From an uncultured bacterium (GTDB lineage Bacteria; Krumholzibacteriota; Krumholzibacteriia; Krumholzibacteriales; Krumholzibacteriaceae), in assembly GCA_965371515.1 (NCBI GenBank), contig CBDUYR010000069.1, positions 1 through 11,539 of the forward strand: a stretch of 11,539 nucleotides of DNA. Direction: 5' to 3'. Shown in pieces: positions 2,866 to 11,539 of this stretch (the first letter of the stretch is position 1; the number at the start of each line of letters is the position of its first letter). A program made the translations under genes and the position numbers. Under the pieces are notes generated by a model. The model was given only the letters and a program-made list of their open reading frames with translations, searched no databases and was not told the DNA's origin.

Positions 2866-5800
2866 ATGATCAAGAAGAGCAAATCAGTTCTGGTCGTCGG
2901 AGCAGGGATCGCCGGCATACAGGCGTCGCTAGATCTCGCCGAACTCGGTGTGGAAGTTCATCTCATCGAGGACACTCCGTCGATAGGCGGGAGGATGCCG
3001 CAGCTCGACAAGACATTCCCGACCAACGACTGCTCGATGTGCATTCTCTCCCCCAAGATGAGTGAGGTAGTGCGTCATTCGAGGATAACCCTTCATATCA
3101 ACTCATCGCTCGATTCTATCTCGGGAGACCCTGGAGACTTCACCTGCACGGTAACACGGAGAGCCACGTACGTTGATGCCGAGAAGTGCGTATCCTGCGG
3201 GCTCTGTGAAGAGAAGTGTCCCGTAAAAGTGGACGACACATTCGATGTCGGTTTGAGGAAGCGGAAGGCGATATCGCGCTACTTTCTCCAGAGTATCCCC
3301 TCCGAATACACAATCGACAGGGACAACTGCCTGTACCTTACGAAGGGCGTTTGCAAACTCTGCGAAAAAGTATGCCCGGCCGACGCGATAAATTACGAGG
3401 ATGAGGACAGGGAGATCGTTCTCAATGTGGGATCGGTGATCCTGGCAACGGGTATCGACCCCTTCGATCCTATCGGTTTCGGCCACTTCGGCTATCACCG
3501 GTTTGACAATGTTATTACCTCTCTGGAATTCGAAAGAATGCTTTCAGCTTCCGGTCCGATAGGCGGCCATGTGGTCAGGGCGTCGGACGGGAAGGAACCG
3601 AAGAAGATCGCGTTCATCCAGTGCGTCGGGTCGCGGGACGAGAGCATAGACAGGAATTACTGCTCGTCGGCCTGCTGCATGTTTGCCATCAAGCAGTCGA
3701 TAATCGCAAAGGAGCACATCAAGGATCTCGAGCCGACGATCTTCTACATGGATATCAGGGCCTTCGGGAAGGATTTCGACAAGTACTACGATAAGGCGGA
3801 AAACCAGTACGGCGTGAGGTTCGTACGCTCGAAGGTGGCCGATATCAGCGAAACGGAGACCGGCGACCTGCGGCTGAGGTTCGTATTCGAGAACGGCGAC
3901 GTGACATACGAGGAATTCGATATGGTCATTCTTGCAATAGGGCTTCAGCCTCGTGAGGGGAGCGCGGACCTGTCCCGGAAAGTCGGTTTCAAGCTCAACG
4001 AGTACGGTTTCTGCAGGTCGGATACTTTCATGCCTCTCCAGACGACTCGAGACGGAATCTACGTGTGCGGCGCGATGAACGGCCCAAAGGATATCCCCGA
4101 ATCGGTCATCTCCGCATCGGGCGCTGTTGCCAATGCGGCGAGATTCCTGGAGTTCGAGCGCCAGGACAGGACCATCGACCCTGATGCCGTCCCGGAGAGG
4201 AACGTAACCGGGGACAGGCCGAGAGTCGGCGTTTTTGTCTGCCACTGTGGGATCAACATAGCCGGTGTTGTAGATGTAAAAGATGTGGCAGATTACGCCG
4301 CTAGCCTCGAAAATGTCGAGCACTCTGAGGACGTCATATACGCCTGTTCGACCGACTGCCTCGAGACGATAAAGAAAAGGATAGAGGAGCATGACCTGAA
4401 CAGGGTGATAGTGGCTGCCTGCACTCCGAGGACGCACGAGCCCCTCTTCAGGGAGACCGCCGCCGAGGCGGGTCTCAATCCCTATCTCGTCGAGATGTCC
4501 AATATAAGAGACCAATGTTCCTGGGCCCATATGGACGAGCCGGAGCTGGCCACAGCCAAGTCGAAGGACCTTGTGGAGATGATGGTCGCCAAGTCGAGGG
4601 GTCTCGAGCCTCTTGAACGTCTGCCGGTCGAGATCGATCCGAAGGCCCTGGTGATCGGAGGCGGCCTGTCCGGCATGAACGCGGCCCTGGCGCTCGCCGA
4701 GGCGGGACACGATGTCTTCCTCGTCGAGAAGGAGGAGGAACTCGGCGGAAACCTGAGAAACATCTTCTTCAACTTCGATGATACCGATCCGCAGGAGTAC
4801 CTTGCCGATCTGATCAGCCGTACCGAATCGAACGAGAGGATCAGGGTCTTCAAGAGCTCGACAGTCGAACAGGTCCTCGGGTCTGTGGGAAATTTTGTGA
4901 CGACGGTGAAGGCTACGGAGACCAGCGGTTCCGAGAACGTTGAACACGGCGTTGTAATCGTGGCGACCGGCGGCGAGGAGCATGCGACGGAGGAATACCT
5001 TTACGGTAAGTCGACGAGGGTCGTCAGCCAGGTCCAGTTCGAGAAGATGATTCACGAGAGAGGTTTCCCCGCTGGACGTCTCAATAACGTAGTTGTCATC
5101 CAGTGTGTCGGCTCAAGGGAAGAGGGCAGGATGTACTGCAGCAGGGTTTGCTGCACCAAGGCGGTGAAGAACGCGCTAGAGCTGAAGAAGATCAAGCCGG
5201 GCACAAACGTATTTGTCGCCTATCGTGATATGAGGACGTACGGATTCAGGGAGAAGTACTACACGAAACTCCGGGATGAGGGCGCAATCTTCATGCACTA
5301 TTCGCTCGAAAGGAAACCGGTCGTTGAGTTGCTCGATCAGGCAAATCCCGACAGCAGGCTCAGTGTGACGATGTTCGATCCGATCCTCGACGGCGAGGTC
5401 GCGGTCGACGCGGACCTGGTTGTCCTGTCGGCGGCGATCGACGCTCCGGAGAGCAACGACGTATTGGCGAAGATGCTGAAGGTACCCCTGAACTCGGACG
5501 GGATGTTCCTCGAGGCCCATGTGAAGCTGAGACCGGTCGATTTCGCGACGGAGGGGATCTTCGTTTGCGGGCTGGCCCACGGGCCGAAGGACATGGATGA
5601 ATCTATTGCACAGTCGAAGGCAGCGGCAAGCAGAGCGCTGACCTTTCTCAATCAGAAATCGATACTTGCCGAGGGAACCATCTGCCGTGTCAGGGAAGAC
5701 AGGTGCACGGGCTGCGCGTACTGCGAGTCGATCTGCGCCTATGCAGCTATCGAGGTAGATCCTGAGAAGCAGGTAGCCGTCGTGAACGAGGCCCTATGCA

Positions 5801-5925
5801 AGGGATGCGGCGCCTGCGTCGCGTCGTGCCGGTGCGGGGCGCTCGATCTACGAGGATTCAGCAACGACCAGCTCTTCTCGGTATTCGAATCGCTCGAGCT
5901 TGCGGCAGTGGAGGAGGCGGAATAG
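2866..5925 (+). CDS. hdrA: Large (1019 aa) heterodisulfide reductase subunit A family flavoprotein with two FAD/thioredoxin-reductase-like modules
   Basis: Module 1: VLVVGAGIAG, QLDKTFPTNDCSMC, inserted ferredoxin (CVSCGLCEEKCP; CLYLTKGVCKLCEKVCP), IQCVGSR...YCSSACC. Internal VGVFVCHCGINI...AACTPRTHE...IRDQCSW domain. Module 2: ALVIGGGLSG, IQCVGSR...YCSRVCC, EAHVKLRPVDF. C-terminal ferredoxin CTGCAYCESIC and CKGCGACVASC. Confidence 0.95.
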   Translation: MIKKSKSVLVVGAGIAGIQASLDLAELGVEVHLIEDTPSIGGRMPQLDKTFPTNDCSMCILSPKMSEVVRHSRITLHINSSLDSISGDPGDFTCTVTRRATYVDAEKCVSCGLCEEKCPVKVDDTFDVGLRKRKAISRYFLQSIPSEYTIDRDNCLYLTKGVCKLCEKVCPADAINYEDEDREIVLNVGSVILATGIDPFDPIGFGHFGYHRFDNVITSLEFERMLSASGPIGGHVVRASDGKEPKKIAFIQCVGSRDESIDRNYCSSACCMFAIKQSIIAKEHIKDLEPTIFYMDIRAFGKDFDKYYDKAENQYGVRFVRSKVADISETETGDLRLRFVFENGDVTYEEFDMVILAIGLQPREGSADLSRKVGFKLNEYGFCRSDTFMPLQTTRDGIYVCGAMNGPKDIPESVISASGAVANAARFLEFERQDRTIDPDAVPERNVTGDRPRVGVFVCHCGINIAGVVDVKDVADYAASLENVEHSEDVIYACSTDCLETIKKRIEEHDLNRVIVAACTPRTHEPLFRETAAEAGLNPYLVEMSNIRDQCSWAHMDEPELATAKSKDLVEMMVAKSRGLEPLERLPVEIDPKALVIGGGLSGMNAALALAEAGHDVFLVEKEEELGGNLRNIFFNFDDTDPQEYLADLISRTESNERIRVFKSSTVEQVLGSVGNFVTTVKATETSGSENVEHGVVIVATGGEEHATEEYLYGKSTRVVSQVQFEKMIHERGFPAGRLNNVVVIQCVGSREEGRMYCSRVCCTKAVKNALELKKIKPGTNVFVAYRDMRTYGFREKYYTKLRDEGAIFMHYSLERKPVVELLDQANPDSRLSVTMFDPILDGEVAVDADLVVLSAAIDAPESNDVLAKMLKVPLNSDGMFLEAHVKLRPVDFATEGIFVCGLAHGPKDMDESIAQSKAAASRALTFLNQKSILAEGTICRVREDRCTGCAYCESICAYAAIEVDPEKQVAVVNEALCKGCGACVASCRCGALDLRGFSNDQLFSVFESLELAAVEEAE
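2999..3042 (+). repeat. Dispersed near-identical segment shared by two hdrA paralogs (second copy at 11021..11064)
   Basis: cgcagctcgacaagacattcccgac is an exact 25-nt match at 2999-3023 and 11021-11045. By manual alignment 42 of 44 nt are identical. It encodes QLDKTFPTNDCxMC. Confidence 0.75.
5912..5917 (+). promoter_or_regulatory. Shine-Dalgarno site for mvhD/flxD at 5926
   Basis: AGGAGG 8 nt upstream of ATG 5926, inside the last codons of hdrA. Confidence 0.7.
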
Positions 5926-6345
5926 ATGAAGGAATGGCAGCCGAAGATACTGGCAATTCTCTGCAACTGGTGCTCGTATGCGGGTGCGGACCTCGCGGGA
6001 GTTTCCAGGATACAGTACCCGGCGAACATTCGGGTGGTGAAGGTCCCCTGCTCGGGGAGGGTCGACCCACTGTTTATAATGAAGAGTCTGCAGAGCGGTT
6101 ACGACGGGATCCTCATCTCGGGGTGCCACCCGGGGGACTGTCACTATATTTCGGGCAATTATGTTGCCAGAAGGCGGTTCGCCCTGCTCAAGCCCCTGCT
6201 CGAGTTCATCGGGGTCGAGCCGGACAGGGTCCAGTTCTCGTGGATCTCGGCGGGCGAGGGAGAGAGGTTCGCTCAGGTCGTTACTAAGGTTACAGAAGAC
6301 GTCAAGAAACTCGGTCCGGCAAAAAGGCTGGTCAAACAGGCATGA
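5926..6345 (+). CDS. flxD: FlxD/MvhD-like [2Fe-2S] protein, copy 2
   Basis: CNWCSYAGADLAG, VPCSGRVDP, SGCHPGDCHY and WISAGEG motifs. It sits between hdrA and flxCBA, as in hdrA-flxDCBA clusters. Confidence 0.9.
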   Translation: MKEWQPKILAILCNWCSYAGADLAGVSRIQYPANIRVVKVPCSGRVDPLFIMKSLQSGYDGILISGCHPGDCHYISGNYVARRRFALLKPLLEFIGVEPDRVQFSWISAGEGERFAQVVTKVTEDVKKLGPAKRLVKQA

Positions 6346-7313
6346 ACGTAAACGATGAATTGAGAGATGCAGCGAAGAAGCTGCTCGCCGATGGCGGAGC
6401 AGATATGGTCATAGGATGGGGCCGGGGATCCCTTCCCATGTCATCGACCCCGGTATTCGCCGCGACGGAGGAAGAGGCCGATGGACTCATCTTTGACGCG
6501 ACATGTGGTTCCAATCTTGCCGTGTATTTCACGAAGGACAGGCGACAGCTTGCCCGTGACGGCAAGAAGACTGCGGTCGTTGCAAAGGGGTGCGACGCCA
6601 GATCGCTCGTGCTGTACATCAAGGAACGCCAGATAGAAAGGGACAACGTGGTCATCATCGGTGTTCCATGTGACGGCATCATAGACAGGAGCAAGATCTC
6701 GGAAATGACCGGCGGGAGGGAGGTCCTCGAGTTCTCCGACAACGGGGCGAAGGTCTCGGTTAAGGGGAAGGATTTCGAGCTGGATATTCCGCGGGAGGAT
6801 GTCCTCAGCGATTCCTGTCTATCGTGCGCACACCCGGACGCAGAGATGTCTGACATCTTTGTCGGCGAACATCGTGGAAGAGGAGAAGTGAAGGATCAGT
6901 ACGCAGAGGTGGAGGAATTCGAGAAGCTCTCCATCTCGGAGAGATGGGAGAGGATGCAGCAGGAGTATTCGAAATGCATTAGATGCTACGCCTGCCGTAA
7001 CGTCTGCCCGTCATGTTACTGCAGCGAGTGTTTCGTAGATCAGAACGATCCGCAGTGGATAGGGAAGACGCTGGATTTCAGCGATACGATGATATTTCAC
7101 GTAATAAGGAACCTTCATGTCGCCGGGCGATGTGTCGAGTGCGGTTCGTGTGAGAGGGCATGCCCGATGGATATCAAACTTCTCCTGCTCAACCGCAAGG
7201 TCGCAAAAGAAGTCGCCGAGAGGTTCGGGATGGAGACGGGAGTCGATCTGGACGCTAAGCCGGCCATGTCCGATTTCAGGGAAGACGAGAAGCAGGATTT
7301 TATAATGGGGTAG
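6342..7313 (+). CDS. flxC: FlxC-like 4Fe-4S dicluster protein (FrhB/FdhB-like N-terminal region)
   Basis: AKGCDARSL, GVPCDG, CLSCAHP, CIRCYACRNVCPSCYCSECF and FHVIRNLHVAGRCVECGSCERACP. ATGA overlap with flxD; position fits flxDCBA synteny. Confidence 0.82.
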   Translation: MNVNDELRDAAKKLLADGGADMVIGWGRGSLPMSSTPVFAATEEEADGLIFDATCGSNLAVYFTKDRRQLARDGKKTAVVAKGCDARSLVLYIKERQIERDNVVIIGVPCDGIIDRSKISEMTGGREVLEFSDNGAKVSVKGKDFELDIPREDVLSDSCLSCAHPDAEMSDIFVGEHRGRGEVKDQYAEVEEFEKLSISERWERMQQEYSKCIRCYACRNVCPSCYCSECFVDQNDPQWIGKTLDFSDTMIFHVIRNLHVAGRCVECGSCERACPMDIKLLLLNRKVAKEVAERFGMETGVDLDAKPAMSDFREDEKQDFIMG

Positions 7314-7317
7314 GGCT

Positions 7318-8343
7318 ATGATAAGGCTCGACAGAAAAAGATTCGAAAGATTCATCGAAGAGCTTGCCGAGGAATACACCCTCTTTGCTCCCGTCATGAA
7401 AGACGGACAAGAGGTGTTCGACGTGGTCTCTTCGGCCGGAGATATCGATTCATCGCGCCTCAACACGGTGAGATCACCGAAGGAGATCTTCTTTCCTCAT
7501 TCCGAGGTCCTTTTCGAATACGACGAGAACAGGATAAGGACCGCTGGAGGGGAGGAGAAGCCGATTGCAGTCTGGGGGATGCGGGGTTGCGACGCAAGAA
7601 GCCTCCCGATGCTCGATAAGGTGTTCGGAAGCGATGGTGAGAGACCTGACAACGTTCGTTTCGATGACCCGTATTGGAGCGGGCGCTACGACAAGTCGCT
7701 CATCTTCTCCCTGGCCTGCAACGAGCCTCTTTCGACCTGCTTCTGCAACTGGTTCGACAGCGGGCCTCACGACCGGAAGGGCGCCGACGTATTCGTTGTC
7801 GATACGGGAGATCTCCTGCTCATGGAGCCGGGCAGCAAGAAGGGCGAAGATTACCTGAAAAGAATGAAAGATGTGGAGAAAGCGACAAAGAAGGACGAGG
7901 AGAAAGCCTCGGCGCTTGCCGCTGAAGCAGAAGGGATGCTGAAGGAGCGGACGGACATTGACGGACTGAGCGAAAAACTGAAGGAAATATTTCACAAGCC
8001 GGTCTGGGACGCCATAAGCGCGAAGTGCGTAAACTGCGGCGCATGCTCGTTCACCTGTTCGACCTGCCACTGTTTCGACATACAGGACGAAGGCAGGAGA
8101 GGGCGTGGAAAGAGGATCAGGATATGGGACACGTGCATGTTCCCGGTCTTCACGAAGGAGGCTTCGGGTCATAATCCCAGGGTGCTATCCAAGGAACGCG
8201 TCCGGCAGCGCGTCATGCACAAGTACAGTTATTTCGTGGATAATCACGGCGAGTTCCTCTGCACGGGGTGCGGCCGGTGCGTTGCCGTATGCCCCGTCAA
8301 CCTCGATATCAGGGAAGTGATCAGAGAGGTGCTGGCCTCCTGA
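7318..8343 (+). CDS. flxB: FlxB-like 4Fe-4S protein (AsrA / sulfhydrogenase beta-subunit family)
   Basis: SPKEIFFP, GMRGCDARSL, ACNEPLSTCFC, CVNCGACSFTCSTCHCFDIQD, RIRIWDTC, HNPR...RVRQRVMHKY and CTGCGRCVAVCPVNLDIREVI. Confidence 0.85.
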   Translation: MIRLDRKRFERFIEELAEEYTLFAPVMKDGQEVFDVVSSAGDIDSSRLNTVRSPKEIFFPHSEVLFEYDENRIRTAGGEEKPIAVWGMRGCDARSLPMLDKVFGSDGERPDNVRFDDPYWSGRYDKSLIFSLACNEPLSTCFCNWFDSGPHDRKGADVFVVDTGDLLLMEPGSKKGEDYLKRMKDVEKATKKDEEKASALAAEAEGMLKERTDIDGLSEKLKEIFHKPVWDAISAKCVNCGACSFTCSTCHCFDIQDEGRRGRGKRIRIWDTCMFPVFTKEASGHNPRVLSKERVRQRVMHKYSYFVDNHGEFLCTGCGRCVAVCPVNLDIREVIREVLAS

Positions 8344-8359
8344 GGACAAGGACGTTCGG

Positions 8360-9193
8360 ATGAGTAACACATATCTGCCCATACAGATGAAAGTAAACAG
8401 GATAGTCGTAGAGGACCCTGCCAAAACGCTCAGGACCTTCGATCTCACTTTCGTCAGGGATGATGACCGAAAAGCCTTCAAATACATGCCGGGACAGTTC
8501 TGCGAGTTCTCGATTCTCGGCAAGGGCGAATCGCCGTTCGGTATAGCCTCTTCTCCTACAGAAGAGGGGTTCCTGCGCTTCACGGTGAGCAGGACAGGCT
8601 CGGTGACCAATGAGATACATTATCTCAGGGAAGGCGATACAGTCGGTATACGCGGGCCCCTGGGCAATTGGTACCCCGTCGAGAAATTCAAGGGAGAGAA
8701 CGTCGTCATTGTCGGCGGTGGATTCGCTTTCACCACGCTGCGCTCGCTTATAGTCTACATGCTCGAGCACCGGGGTGACTACGAGGACATCACCGTCATA
8801 TACGGGGCGCGAAATCCCGACCTCTTTATTTACAAGGACCAGCTGGAGGAGTGGAAGGGCAGGGACGACATCAATGTGCATCTGACCATCGACAACCCGG
8901 TGGACGGATGGGACGGACTCACCGGATTTGTCCCCGCTGTGACAAAGGATATATCGCCGAGCCCGGAGAAGGCATGGGTCGTACTCTGCGGACCGCCGAT
9001 CATGATCAAGTACACACTGCCCGTGATCTCGGATCTCGGCTTTACGGACGAAAGAGTATACACGTCGCTCGAACGACGTATGAAATGTGGAATAGGAAAA
9101 TGCGGAAGATGCAACATCGGCTCGCGCTATATCTGCGCCGACGGGCCGGTATTCTCGATGGCCGAAATCGAGGATATTCCCGAGACTGTGTAG
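8360..9193 (+). CDS. flxA: FlxA-like FAD/NAD(P)-binding [2Fe-2S] oxidoreductase (AsrB / PyrK / sulfhydrogenase gamma family)
   Basis: PGQF, GESPFGIASSP, IRGPLGN, GGGFAFTTLRS, LCGPPIM and the [2Fe-2S] motif ERRMKCGIGKCGRCNIGSRYICADGPVF. AAGGA RBS at 8348-8352. Confidence 0.9.
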   Translation: MSNTYLPIQMKVNRIVVEDPAKTLRTFDLTFVRDDDRKAFKYMPGQFCEFSILGKGESPFGIASSPTEEGFLRFTVSRTGSVTNEIHYLREGDTVGIRGPLGNWYPVEKFKGENVVIVGGGFAFTTLRSLIVYMLEHRGDYEDITVIYGARNPDLFIYKDQLEEWKGRDDINVHLTIDNPVDGWDGLTGFVPAVTKDISPSPEKAWVVLCGPPIMIKYTLPVISDLGFTDERVYTSLERRMKCGIGKCGRCNIGSRYICADGPVFSMAEIEDIPETV

Positions 9194-9209: not shown

Positions 9210-9683
9210 ATGGAAAAAATCATACTGAGCGAGAAAGACCCCCGCTTCAAATATGAAGTGGCTTCGAAGCCCGGCGCTGAAGCGTTCATGCGCTGCTTCA
9301 CCTGCGGCACCTGCACTGCGTCGTGCCCCGTGGCTGAAGTCCACGACGAATACGATCCGAGAAAGATCATAAGGATGACCGTTCTCGGGATGCGCGAGGA
9401 AGTCCTCTCCTCTGACATCCTATGGATGTGCTCGAGGTGTTACACCTGCCATGCCCTCTGCCCCCAGAACGTCAAGTTCACCGATGTTATTTCCATACTC
9501 AGGGAGATGGCGATAAAGGAGGGGTACGTGCCAAAGGAAAGGTACGAAAAGGCGAGGGAGCTCGACAGGCGGATACAGGAATTAAGGTGCAGGATCATCA
9601 ACAACAAACTGCATCCGGAAACGAATAATGTGAAAGAGATCAAGGCCATGGTCGAGGAAGAGCTCGGCGAGGAATGGGCATAA
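9210..9683 (+). CDS. hdrC: Heterodisulfide reductase subunit C-like 2x[4Fe-4S] protein
   Basis: CFTCGTCTASCPV, YDPRKIIRMTVLG and LWMCSRCYTCHALCPQNVKFTDVISILREMAIKEG. AAGGAG RBS at 9195-9200. Confidence 0.9.
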   Translation: MEKIILSEKDPRFKYEVASKPGAEAFMRCFTCGTCTASCPVAEVHDEYDPRKIIRMTVLGMREEVLSSDILWMCSRCYTCHALCPQNVKFTDVISILREMAIKEGYVPKERYEKARELDRRIQELRCRIINNKLHPETNNVKEIKAMVEEELGEEWA

Positions 9684-9707
9684 TACGATAAAATGACAGG
9701 GGACGCC

Positions 9708-10832
9708 ATGAATCAGGACAGGATCTGGTCGTTTACCGATCTCAGGAACGAAGTGATAGATGGGGGTATCTGTGGAAAGTGCGGCGGATGTGTCTCCTTC
9801 TGCTCGGCAAACAGGATCGGTGCCCTGAAAATCGGCGAGAACGGATTTCCCGCCTACGATGACGAGGACAAATGCCTCGAGTGCGGGCTGTGCTACATGG
9901 TCTGCCCGCAGACCCATCCCCTTCAGGAGGAGGTCAACGCGGCATATGACTGGGAGCCTCCGATAGGTAATTTTATCGATGTATTCTCGGCCCGCAGCGC
10001 CGATACGGAGATCCTCGAGTCCGGTACTGACGGAGGTGTTGTTACCGCTCTGTTGATTCATCTCCTGGAAAACGGATTTATTGACGGGGCGGCCGTATCG
10101 ATATCAGAGGGTCCCTTCAAGAGAAAGGCGATCGTTGCTACTTCGAGGGAGGAACTCCTTCAGGCCGCCGGCTCTCACTGGGCCGAGTTGCCGCATCTCG
10201 AGGAGGTAGGAACAGGGTATACGAACTTCGTGCCGGTGATCAGGTCCATTCATGAACTCGAACCGAAGAAGTTGAAGAAGATCGCAGTGGTCGGCACACC
10301 GTGCCAGATAGGCGCAGTAAGGAAGATGCAGGTGCTCAACATCGTTCCGTCAGACATAGTCGTGCTGACGATCGGCCTGTTCTGCATGCAGTGTTTCGAG
10401 ATAGATCACCTGATGGACAAGGGCTTCATGAAGAACCACAATGTGACCCCGGACGACCTGGACGGGGTGAACATCAAAGACGACTTTATGCTGAAGCTCA
10501 AGTCCGGGATCACACTCCACGTTCCTCTCAAGGAGATCGAGGAGATAGCGAGACCTGCCTGCCTGGCCTGTAAGCTCTTCGCCAACGATTACGCTGACAT
10601 CTCAGTCGGCGGACTTGGCTCGCCGGATGGGTATACGACAGTGGTGATAAGGACGATCAACGGTAAGCGGATGTTTGCGGACGCCGTATACGACGGAAGC
10701 ATCGAGTACAGGACGAGAAGATCGATGAGCGACTACGCGGTTGAGATGAGCACGATCGTATCGCAGATAGTCAAATTCGCCGACAGCAAAAAAACACGGG
10801 GGCTGAAATACAGGAAGCAGTACAGGAGCTAA
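9708..10832 (+). CDS. frhB: FrhB/FpoF-like coenzyme F420 hydrogenase/dehydrogenase beta-subunit family protein with N-terminal 2x[4Fe-4S] domain
   Basis: CGKCGGCVSFC and CLECGLCYMVCP, followed by GTDGGVVTALL, AAGSHW, VVGTPCQ, IGLFCMQCF and RPACLAC...ADISVGG. Start is ATG 9708 (AGGGGA at 9698-9703) or ATG 9693. Confidence 0.85.
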   Translation: MNQDRIWSFTDLRNEVIDGGICGKCGGCVSFCSANRIGALKIGENGFPAYDDEDKCLECGLCYMVCPQTHPLQEEVNAAYDWEPPIGNFIDVFSARSADTEILESGTDGGVVTALLIHLLENGFIDGAAVSISEGPFKRKAIVATSREELLQAAGSHWAELPHLEEVGTGYTNFVPVIRSIHELEPKKLKKIAVVGTPCQIGAVRKMQVLNIVPSDIVVLTIGLFCMQCFEIDHLMDKGFMKNHNVTPDDLDGVNIKDDFMLKLKSGITLHVPLKEIEEIARPACLACKLFANDYADISVGGLGSPDGYTTVVIRTINGKRMFADAVYDGSIEYRTRRSMSDYAVEMSTIVSQIVKFADSKKTRGLKYRKQYRS

Positions 10833-10872: not shown

Positions 10873-11539
10873 ATGAATAATAATTCTAAAAAATCAAAAT
10901 CAGGATCCGTTCTCGTAGTGGGTGGAGGGATCGCTGGTATCCAGTCGTCTCTGGATCTAGCAGAGTCCGGATTCAAGGTTTATCTACTCGAGGAAACCCC
11001 GGCGATCGGGGGTACTATGGCGCAGCTCGACAAGACATTCCCGACAAACGACTGCGCGATGTGCGTTATCTCTCCAAAGCTCGTCGGTGCCGGCAGACAC
11101 CTGAACATTGACCTGATCACAAACTCGGAGCTGATGGGTGTGAGTGGTGAGGCGGGGAAATTCAGGGTGCAGGTCAAAAAGAACCCCAGGTATATCGACG
11201 CAGAGAAATGCACTGGTTGCGGCGCGTGTACACTGAATTGTCCGGTGGTTAATGTGATACAGCCTGTTGAAGAACCATATATAAGACTAAGTGACGAAGA
11301 CCTGCAAAAAGTCAGGCCTGTTTTGGATAAATATATTGGTCAAAAAGGCAATCTGATGCCGATACTGCAACAAATAAATCAGATGTTCAATTATTTGCCG
11401 CCTGACGTATTGAGGTATGTATCAATAAGATTGGGTGTAGGATTGTCGGATATATATAATATAGCCTCATTTTATAATTCTTTCAGCCTTACGCCGCGGG
11501 GGAGGCATACAATAAAAATATGTATGGGAACAACCTGCT
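10873..11539 (+). CDS. Partial HdrA(N-terminal)-NuoE/HydC fusion protein, running off the window end
   Basis: My translation gives an open frame of 222 codons with no stop. HdrA part: MNNNSKKSKSGSVLVVGGGIAGIQSSLDLAESG...QLDKTFPTNDCAMCVISPK...PRYIDAEKCTGCGACTLNCP. NuoE-like part: VLDKYIGQKGNLMPILQQINQMFNYLPPDVLRYVSIRLGVGLSDIYNIASFYNSFSLTPRGRHTIKICMGTTC. Confidence 0.88.
   Translation, partial: MNNNSKKSKSGSVLVVGGGIAGIQSSLDLAESGFKVYLLEETPAIGGTMAQLDKTFPTNDCAMCVISPKLVGAGRHLNIDLITNSELMGVSGEAGKFRVQVKKNPRYIDAEKCTGCGACTLNCPVVNVIQPVEEPYIRLSDEDLQKVRPVLDKYIGQKGNLMPILQQINQMFNYLPPDVLRYVSIRLGVGLSDIYNIASFYNSFSLTPRGRHTIKICMGTTC

Follow-up and report, generated by a model that had tools for sequence, protein, structure and literature searches.

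hdrA split within its inserted ferredoxin by a bfuCBA cassette: a new wiring of two known bifurcation modules in an uncultured Krumholzibacteriaceae bacterium and its relatives

The class II benzoyl-CoA reductase (BCRII) is described, in the cited parts of a preprint, as the sole characterised complex reported with two different bifurcation modules (bioRxiv 10.64898/2026.04.10.717634), and the enzyme of Geobacter metallireducens, BamBCDEFGHI, is referred to as Bam-Bfu (PMC9304861; bioRxiv 10.64898/2026.04.10.717634). According to the cryo-EM sections of that preprint, electrons from Bfu pass through BamI to a C-terminal ferredoxin, then to BamF and finally to the FAD that bifurcates, whereas low-potential electrons leave for BamBC by way of the inserted ferredoxin (bioRxiv 10.64898/2026.04.10.717634). 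A second arrangement is HdrL, an HdrA with a GltD(NfnB) insert, which has been reported in Desulfobacterium autotrophicum (PMC2702500), in ANME-1 (HdrA9-11; PMC9012536) and in Moorella thermoacetica (PMC9430772). Clusters in which hdrA, mvhD and nuoEFG occur as separate genes have also been reported (PMC4046663). Where Schut et al. 2022 classify these enzymes (PMC9304861), a fusion of the BfuA-HdrA type does not appear, the term 'Hdr' does not occur in one supplement file of the same paper, and a split HdrA is not mentioned in passages of PMC11237513, PMC5736913, PMC6085437, PMC8671834 and PMC12318220. No description of a split HdrA was found in the literature searched; the HdrA review of Appel et al. 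(2021) or supplements could hold a mention.

The locus described here lies in an uncultured bacterium of the Krumholzibacteriaceae with a genome of 3.08 Mb (G000), and the window analysed is the entire contig C69, 11,539 nucleotides in length, on which all features given below occupy the + strand. In this locus and its relatives, hereafter the split form, hdrA is divided within its inserted ferredoxin by a bfuC-bfuB-bfuA (NuoE/F/G'-like) cassette; judged from sequence, there is a good probability that the two HdrA pieces reassemble in trans, and direct electron exchange between the NADH/ferredoxin module and the ferredoxin arm of HdrA is predicted. The split form is a new wiring of two known modules. 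It shares with Bam-Bfu the combination of a HydBC-type module (BamGHI) with a two-FAD HdrA (BamE), joined there in one complex and encoded as the same two modules in split loci, and BfuA lacks the His-ligated A3 cluster in both. However, BamE is a single chain reached via BamF (MvhD-like), whereas the split form has two HdrA chains, with Bfu fused at the inserted ferredoxin. The window locus does not combine an intact BamE, the order hdrA-mvhD-bfuCBA and a tungsten BamB, as Bam-Bfu does, and no BamB/BamC-type gene occurs among the 11 window proteins scanned; a Bam-like order, hdrC-hdrA-mvhD-bfuCBA, occurs separately (e.g., loci L076, L090 and L038). HdrL resembles the split form in that a two-FAD HdrA has its inserted ferredoxin broken, at the identical place, by a module for pyridine nucleotides, but the HdrL insert measures ~500 aa, belongs to one polypeptide and binds FAD, whereas that of the split form consists of three genes with a predicted FMN and a ferredoxin-docking domain, and HdrA is cut in two. 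The insert of the window locus is bfuCBA and not a GltD/NfnB module within a single HdrA chain, GltD being found only on BfuB, in L043 and P0004.

Two further groups of enzymes come close to the split form. The BfuABC family (HydABC, NiFe-HydABCSL 7T2R, WorABCSL 9MQX and NfnABC) has the same BfuBC core, with FMN as well as motifs B1-B5 (B5 degenerate in several split loci) and C1, but in the split form BfuA has the greater part of an HdrA as its third-substrate domain, and the piece that this HdrA lacks is located on BfuC. The MvhAGD-HdrABC complexes of methanogens (PDB 5ODC, 8RVU) and FlxABCD-HdrABC of sulfate reducers resemble the split form in the HdrA residues, including E356/K409, and in having mvhD, hdrC(B), mvhGA or flx-like genes nearby. 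Their inserted ferredoxin reduces free ferredoxin, whereas the split form ties it covalently to BfuA; in methanogens, the inserted ferredoxin of HdrA may serve FwdF instead of free ferredoxin. The split form is a second wiring of the two modules combined in BCRII. Its hosts are archaea as well as uncultured bacteria of sediments that belong to many phyla, and its pieces are labelled simply NuoE or HdrA in databases. If the chains assemble, they would provide a fixed path from the inserted ferredoxin of HdrA to a defined acceptor, which would bear on how HdrA gates the low-potential electron and on the roles of Hdr/Mvh/Flx/MetVF clusters in non-methanogens.

The hdrA-N::bfuC fusion gene occupies positions 10873-11539 and is truncated by the contig end. 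Counted from ATG 10873 (or TTG 10849), its frame stays open up to 11539, where the contig ends, without a stop; ~291 aa are expected for the complete product, and orthologues measure 291-292 aa at 84-90% identity. A preliminary description of this DNA had pointed to an in-frame HdrA-NuoE fusion missing from the list of open reading frames. The open frame was confirmed, and its absence from the list is likely due to the lack of a stop before the contig end. The HdrA N-piece (aa 9-125; 10897-11247) is the initial part of the FAD-binding domain, equivalent to residues 146-258 of PDB 5ODC chain A, and it is colinear, as had been noted, with the intact two-FAD HdrA paralogue of 1019 aa encoded at 2866-5925, the unsplit comparison in this window (60% identity over aa 9-125, E 9e-45). 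It contains the GxGxxG dinucleotide-binding motif (GGGIAG, 10921-10938), invariant in 51/51 aligned N-chains, and the pair Cys61-x-x-Cys64 (11053-11064) within TNDCAMC, which, by its position in the sequence, is likely the counterpart of the Cys59-Cys62 redox pair that the cited parts of the BCRII preprint describe in BamE (bioRxiv 10.64898/2026.04.10.717634). The piece closes with a single half of the inserted 2[4Fe-4S] ferredoxin (CxxCxxCxxxCP, 11209-11244), whose four Cys are invariant in the 51 N-chains and whose partner half is located on the downstream BfuA::HdrA-C chain, where the motif is invariant in 12/12 C-chains. A variable linker (11248-11319), of low pLDDT in the model of the G017 chain, leads to the BfuC (NuoE/HydC) domain at 11320-11539. 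The latter matches PF01257 at residues 150-222 (E 3.6e-19; 69.5 bits, the cut-off being 24.8), so that the NuoE-type assignment stands, and its first two [2Fe-2S] Cys lie at 11521 and 11536; all these motifs had been placed correctly from the letters. The second Cys pair, which had been expected downstream, is kept in 50/50 full-length relatives, and contigs of the C69 haplotype are gap-free across that part.

The HdrA-N/BfuC fusion is real, conserved and widespread, and its function we infer from sequence. Since the G+C content falls from ~0.55 to 0.38 after about 11250, the 3' part is nearer to another genus and the contig ends there, two explanations have to be weighed: an assembly chimera, or a remnant now in decay after hdrA was disrupted by an insertion. 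The chimera, which the preliminary description had proposed to check with reads across the junction, is ruled out by contigs from two studies: in runs X1-X3 of one study (X1 possibly the source run) one contig spans 11082-11539 with 0 differences, and in run X4 of the second a 792-nt contig spans 10695-11486 with 67 differences (91.5% identity). As to a remnant, the fusion is intact in 7/150 other genomes sampled from the phylum, the layout recurs across several phyla, and 26/33 codon changes between the N-pieces of C69 and contig C68 are synonymous, which together make this explanation highly improbable. Moreover, contigs of 1921, 2168 and 1073 nt placed on the G016 locus run gap-free through the bfuC end into bfuB at ~88% identity, and the anticipated NuoF-like partner is present, as the C69 haplotype continues into bfuB, visible over its first 410 nt only. 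The codons place a recombination breakpoint near 11230: over codons 9-118, C69 shares 77/110 with C68 and 47/110 with G016, whereas over codons 151-222 it shares 19/72 with C68 and 50/72 with G016, the 3' part being nearer to G016 than to the C68 copy. The G+C step at the junction is, on these comparisons, a recombination scar. A second, diverged version of the operon, 87.6% identical in nucleotides across 11.2 kb, is found on contig C68 and likewise contains the fusion (73% aa identity over 203 residues). C68 and C69 share with the end of C75 the same overlap of ~55 bases, and their depth is similar in three runs; the pair of 11.5-kb Hdr/Flx operons reflects duplication of the operon or else two haplotypes that occur together.

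The remainder of HdrA was sought in related loci. In the phylum sample, the fusion occurs in 8/151 genomes, this one included, and in 0/5 sampled genomes of the same genus; Ca. Krumholzibacteria and Latescibacterota are among the labels given to close homologues at NCBI, and the full fusion is present in 4/40 relatives (291-311 aa, terminating after BfuC). A profile search of 50%-identity representatives ranked 8 full-span fusions at the top among 150 rows. A species-level contig scan with at least 612 stretches, a sample and not a census, yielded at least 76 loci, of which at least 11 have HdrA-N adjoining BfuC; these 11 belong to Desulfobacterota, Bacillota, Spirochaetota, Acidobacteriota, Cloacimonadota, Chloroflexota, Thermoplasmatota and unclassified records. 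Together with 7 relatives they form a set of 18 loci, in all of which bfuB is the next gene (truncated in G016, broken in L077). The order hdrA-N(::bfuC), bfuB, bfuA::hdrA-C is found in 15/15 loci whose DNA extends that far, that of L048, L077 and G016 ending before the position of bfuA::hdrA-C. HdrA-N is in frame with BfuC in 15/18 loci and forms its own small ORF in the other three (L049, L077, L101); the in-frame join is not essential. The bfuB product has 596-655 aa, except in L043, where a GltD module brings it to 1022 aa. BfuA::HdrA-C (1074-1111 aa) combines a NuoG/HydA-type N-terminus with the rest of a two-FAD HdrA; in L050, a one-FAD HdrA is split in the same manner. The preliminary description had considered that the remaining HdrA may continue in this ORF or be fused to a downstream NuoF, and that its absence downstream would suggest a remnant. 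It does lie downstream in each of the 15 sufficiently long loci, but on the NuoG/HydA-like N-terminal Fe-S domain beyond bfuB. N-chains terminate after BfuC, which rejects the first placement, and the longer forms observed (P0004-P0006, P0016, P0019) continue into BfuB or BfuB-GltD, not into HdrA.

The assembly of this genome is without the stretch from the bfuC end to the bfuA::hdrA-C junction. Contig C84 starts inside the HdrA C-part and has 79% identity to the G017 C-chain, with which it groups at SH-aLRT 100, so that the link between C69 and C84 rests on orthology. Two more bfu-type sets of the same genome lie at C25:6676-11880 and C38:8789-14825, of which one encodes a BfuC-BfuB fusion of 1068 aa and a BfuA-like protein of 665 aa, and the other a BfuA-like protein of 1299 aa. 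They were rejected as the missing piece, as they have only 53-58% identity to the BfuB of the relatives and are followed by other BfuA types.

The FAD domain and its inserted ferredoxin are divided over two genes instead of being complete in one polypeptide, and the C-chain resumes where the N-piece (5ODC residues 146-258) stops. Among the best 120 of 6702 N-chain matches, 120/120 retain GxGxxG, all four Cys of the half-ferredoxin and the two Cys pairs of BfuC, 119/120 retain DCxxC, and the C-part motif CVGSR is found in none. Conversely, the best 120 of 1145 C-chain matches all contain BfuA-N, the other half-ferredoxin and the C-part of the FAD domain, and the N-piece motif DKTFPT occurs in 0/120. 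Two ferredoxin motifs belong to BfuA itself, so that only the N-piece, in trans, can complete the HdrA insert; the total of four half-motifs yields two complete ferredoxins only with the one that the N-piece contributes. FAD binding and both clusters of the insert would require the N- and C-chains together. Another explanation is that the N-piece completes a different HdrA (e.g., the intact paralogue of the operon) or serves as a structural tether, with BfuA::HdrA-C working via its second FAD domain alone. The operon does encode several HdrA paralogues, the second FAD domain of the C-chain is complete, and the lone N-piece models poorly: in the predicted G017 N-chain (mean pLDDT 71, pTM 0.36) BfuC is confident, the linker loose and the HdrA piece poorly ordered (pLDDT 43-50 over residues 41-70), which fits an incomplete domain, and the 30-row alignment could also be the cause. 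However, the one-FAD HdrA of L050 is split alike, without any second FAD domain, the residues of the first domain are invariant in both pieces, and the examined DNA of the split loci L042, L043, L044 and L047 contains no intact HdrA, so that a different HdrA or a tether appears quite improbable.

Both bifurcation signatures are kept in the split form. Firstly, E356 and K409 (5ODC numbering), given as marks of bifurcating HdrA in the cited part of PMC9430772, have invariant equivalents in 12/12 C-chains, and these residues as well as the ligands of the FAD-proximal [4Fe-4S] cluster are present in the 12 C-chains and in C84. As the second FAD domain also keeps E in 11/11 and K in 10/11, the signature does not single out the bifurcating flavin. 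Secondly, BfuB, whose best PDB match is 7T2R_B (E 2e-237), contains the FMN domain, with B1 and the Cys/His/Cys/Cys of the B2 site invariant in 13/13 relatives and the C-terminal 2[4Fe-4S] (B3/B4) present in 12/13. The N-terminal [2Fe-2S] (B5) is complete in G017, the closest full-length relative, and lacks at least one Cys in several others (e.g., L033, L044, L048); some loci with a degenerate B5 carry a separate thioredoxin-like gene. The BfuA part, best matched by 9MQX chain A (E 9.4e-33), keeps the 12 Cys of clusters A1, A2 and A4 in 12/12 and has an LLxxxP stretch at the A3 site. The proposal that a NuoEF-type module occupies the inserted-ferredoxin position of HdrA is therefore upheld, the module being of the NuoE/F/G' type (HydCBA, Bfu).

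In the mechanism proposed for the reassembled enzyme, Flx-like or Mvh partners would supply HdrA, by way of MvhD, with electrons of middle potential, and the flavin of HdrA would send one electron to HdrC and then to HdrB or, here, to the FrhB-like protein. The low-potential electron would enter Bfu, where BfuA would pass it via clusters A4-A2-A1 to the FMN of BfuB, to be shared between NAD+ and ferredoxin. This outward direction, from HdrA to Bfu, is slightly favoured because BfuA is fused at the inserted ferredoxin, the low-potential exit in BCRII, and by analogy with this arm in methanogen HdrA and BamE. In reverse, NADH and reduced ferredoxin would feed HdrA through the same wiring, as is supposed for the insert of HdrL that takes NAD(P)H. 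Here, a single enzyme is likely to have both energy-coupling devices built into it; that the two bifurcation reactions are actually coupled we infer. More tentatively, the split form may be a widespread, undescribed two-stage bifurcating enzyme, in which the low-potential arm of HdrA is covalently joined to Bfu via a flavin domain and a ferredoxin, each built from two polypeptides, and in which two stages in series would work as a gear. With potentials of -280 mV for NADH and -500 mV for ferredoxin (PMC9304861, Table 1), our own arithmetic indicates that such a series could yield one reduced ferredoxin from 3 NADH with an acceptor at ~-170 mV, whereas one stage needs ~-60 mV. It would suit weak acceptors such as methylene-THF, for which reductase-like genes occur after the split hdrA in L042 and beside it in L046, and the HdrA insert site would be a general socket for nothing, GltD or Bfu.

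A simpler alternative is that the complex assembles but only one flavin system bifurcates, Bfu being a plain NADH diaphorase for HdrA, or HdrA a mere wire between Bfu and its partners. The diaphorase role is that given to the GltD/NfnB insert of HdrL, and the M. thermoacetica HdrA with a GltD insert oxidises NADH, as the cited part of PMC9430772 states. Likewise, near-identical HdrA backbones in split and HdrL forms (L047 with L092 and L099) suggest interchangeable function, the B5 ligands are degenerate in some loci, and the GltD module replaces B3/B4 in L043. Nevertheless, the features of bifurcating BfuB named by Schut et al. 2022, namely the B2-site ligands and B3/B4, are kept in all 13 and in 12 of the 13 relatives, respectively, and the HdrA E/K pair in 12/12 C-chains, which leaves bifurcation by a single flavin system unlikely.

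Between the intact hdrA and the fusion, the window contains mvhD/flxD, FdhB-like, AsrA-like and HydG/AsrB-like genes (5926-9193), a set that we take to be Flx-type, followed by an hdrC-like gene (9210-9683) and a gene of the FrhB/FpoF family (9693-10832), where other split loci have hdrCB. The same replacement of hdrB after hdrC is observed in G000, G016, G017, G061 and G087, and FrhB-like genes adjoin hdrC-hdrA in two archaeal loci, L070 and L113; the FrhB-like protein may be an alternative end point of the HdrC branch. An mvhD gene follows the C-chain gene in 10/15 loci. It is absent from this position in G000, G017, G061 and G087, a clade that has two mvhD genes upstream, and, since the operon also lacks hdrB, the other two ports are uncertain here. 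An mvhD gene and then metV/metF-like genes, the latter identified by N-terminal sequence only, adjoin split hdrA in L042:6917-9069 and L046:6705-8771, a layout resembling the Moorella MetFV-Hdr cluster with Bfu replacing GltD. At the same level of identification, a second AsrA/AsrB-like pair and membrane Nuo/Ech-type-like genes lie past the C-chain gene in L118:2332-6000 (G017) and L130:15489-19700 (G061), where the latter genes hint at a membrane link.

The distribution of the insert was traced on a tree of the FAD-domain C-part, built from 110 rows by a quick method, with form labels taken from automatic neighbour order (a few 'HdrL' labels, those of L088 and L091, may be wrong). Split, GltD-inserted (HdrL) and intact HdrA interleave on this tree, the 16 split forms requiring 9 changes, and the split L047 is sister to the HdrL forms L092 and L099 on very short branches (SH-aLRT 99). 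A single origin of the split form is rejected by an AU test (p = 1.4e-5 against monophyly), carried out on a 47-row subset picked after the first tree. Thus, the HdrA insert site likely acts as an exchangeable socket. The pairing of L047 with two HdrL forms, together with the breakpoint in C69, suggests that the ferredoxin motif is a recombination site, where a GltD or Bfu module is acquired by HdrA backbones or exchanged between them.

Several variants of the layout were observed. DRTGG, CBS, PHP and histidine-kinase-ATPase genes, types known from [FeFe]-hydrogenase operons, lie between bfuB and bfuA::hdrA-C in L032:3218-6033, L033:11343-14318, L047:13175-15941 and L048:3061-6220, so that the HdrA pieces are ~5 kb apart there. 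In P0082, receiver and histidine-kinase domains precede HdrA-N::BfuC (669 aa; one cluster member), possibly as a read-through. Finally, free-standing HdrA N-pieces of ~130 aa at L049:9700-10090 and L077:10000-10380 are skipped by ORF callers and carry an in-frame TGA at the second Cys of DCxxC, which likely encodes selenocysteine.
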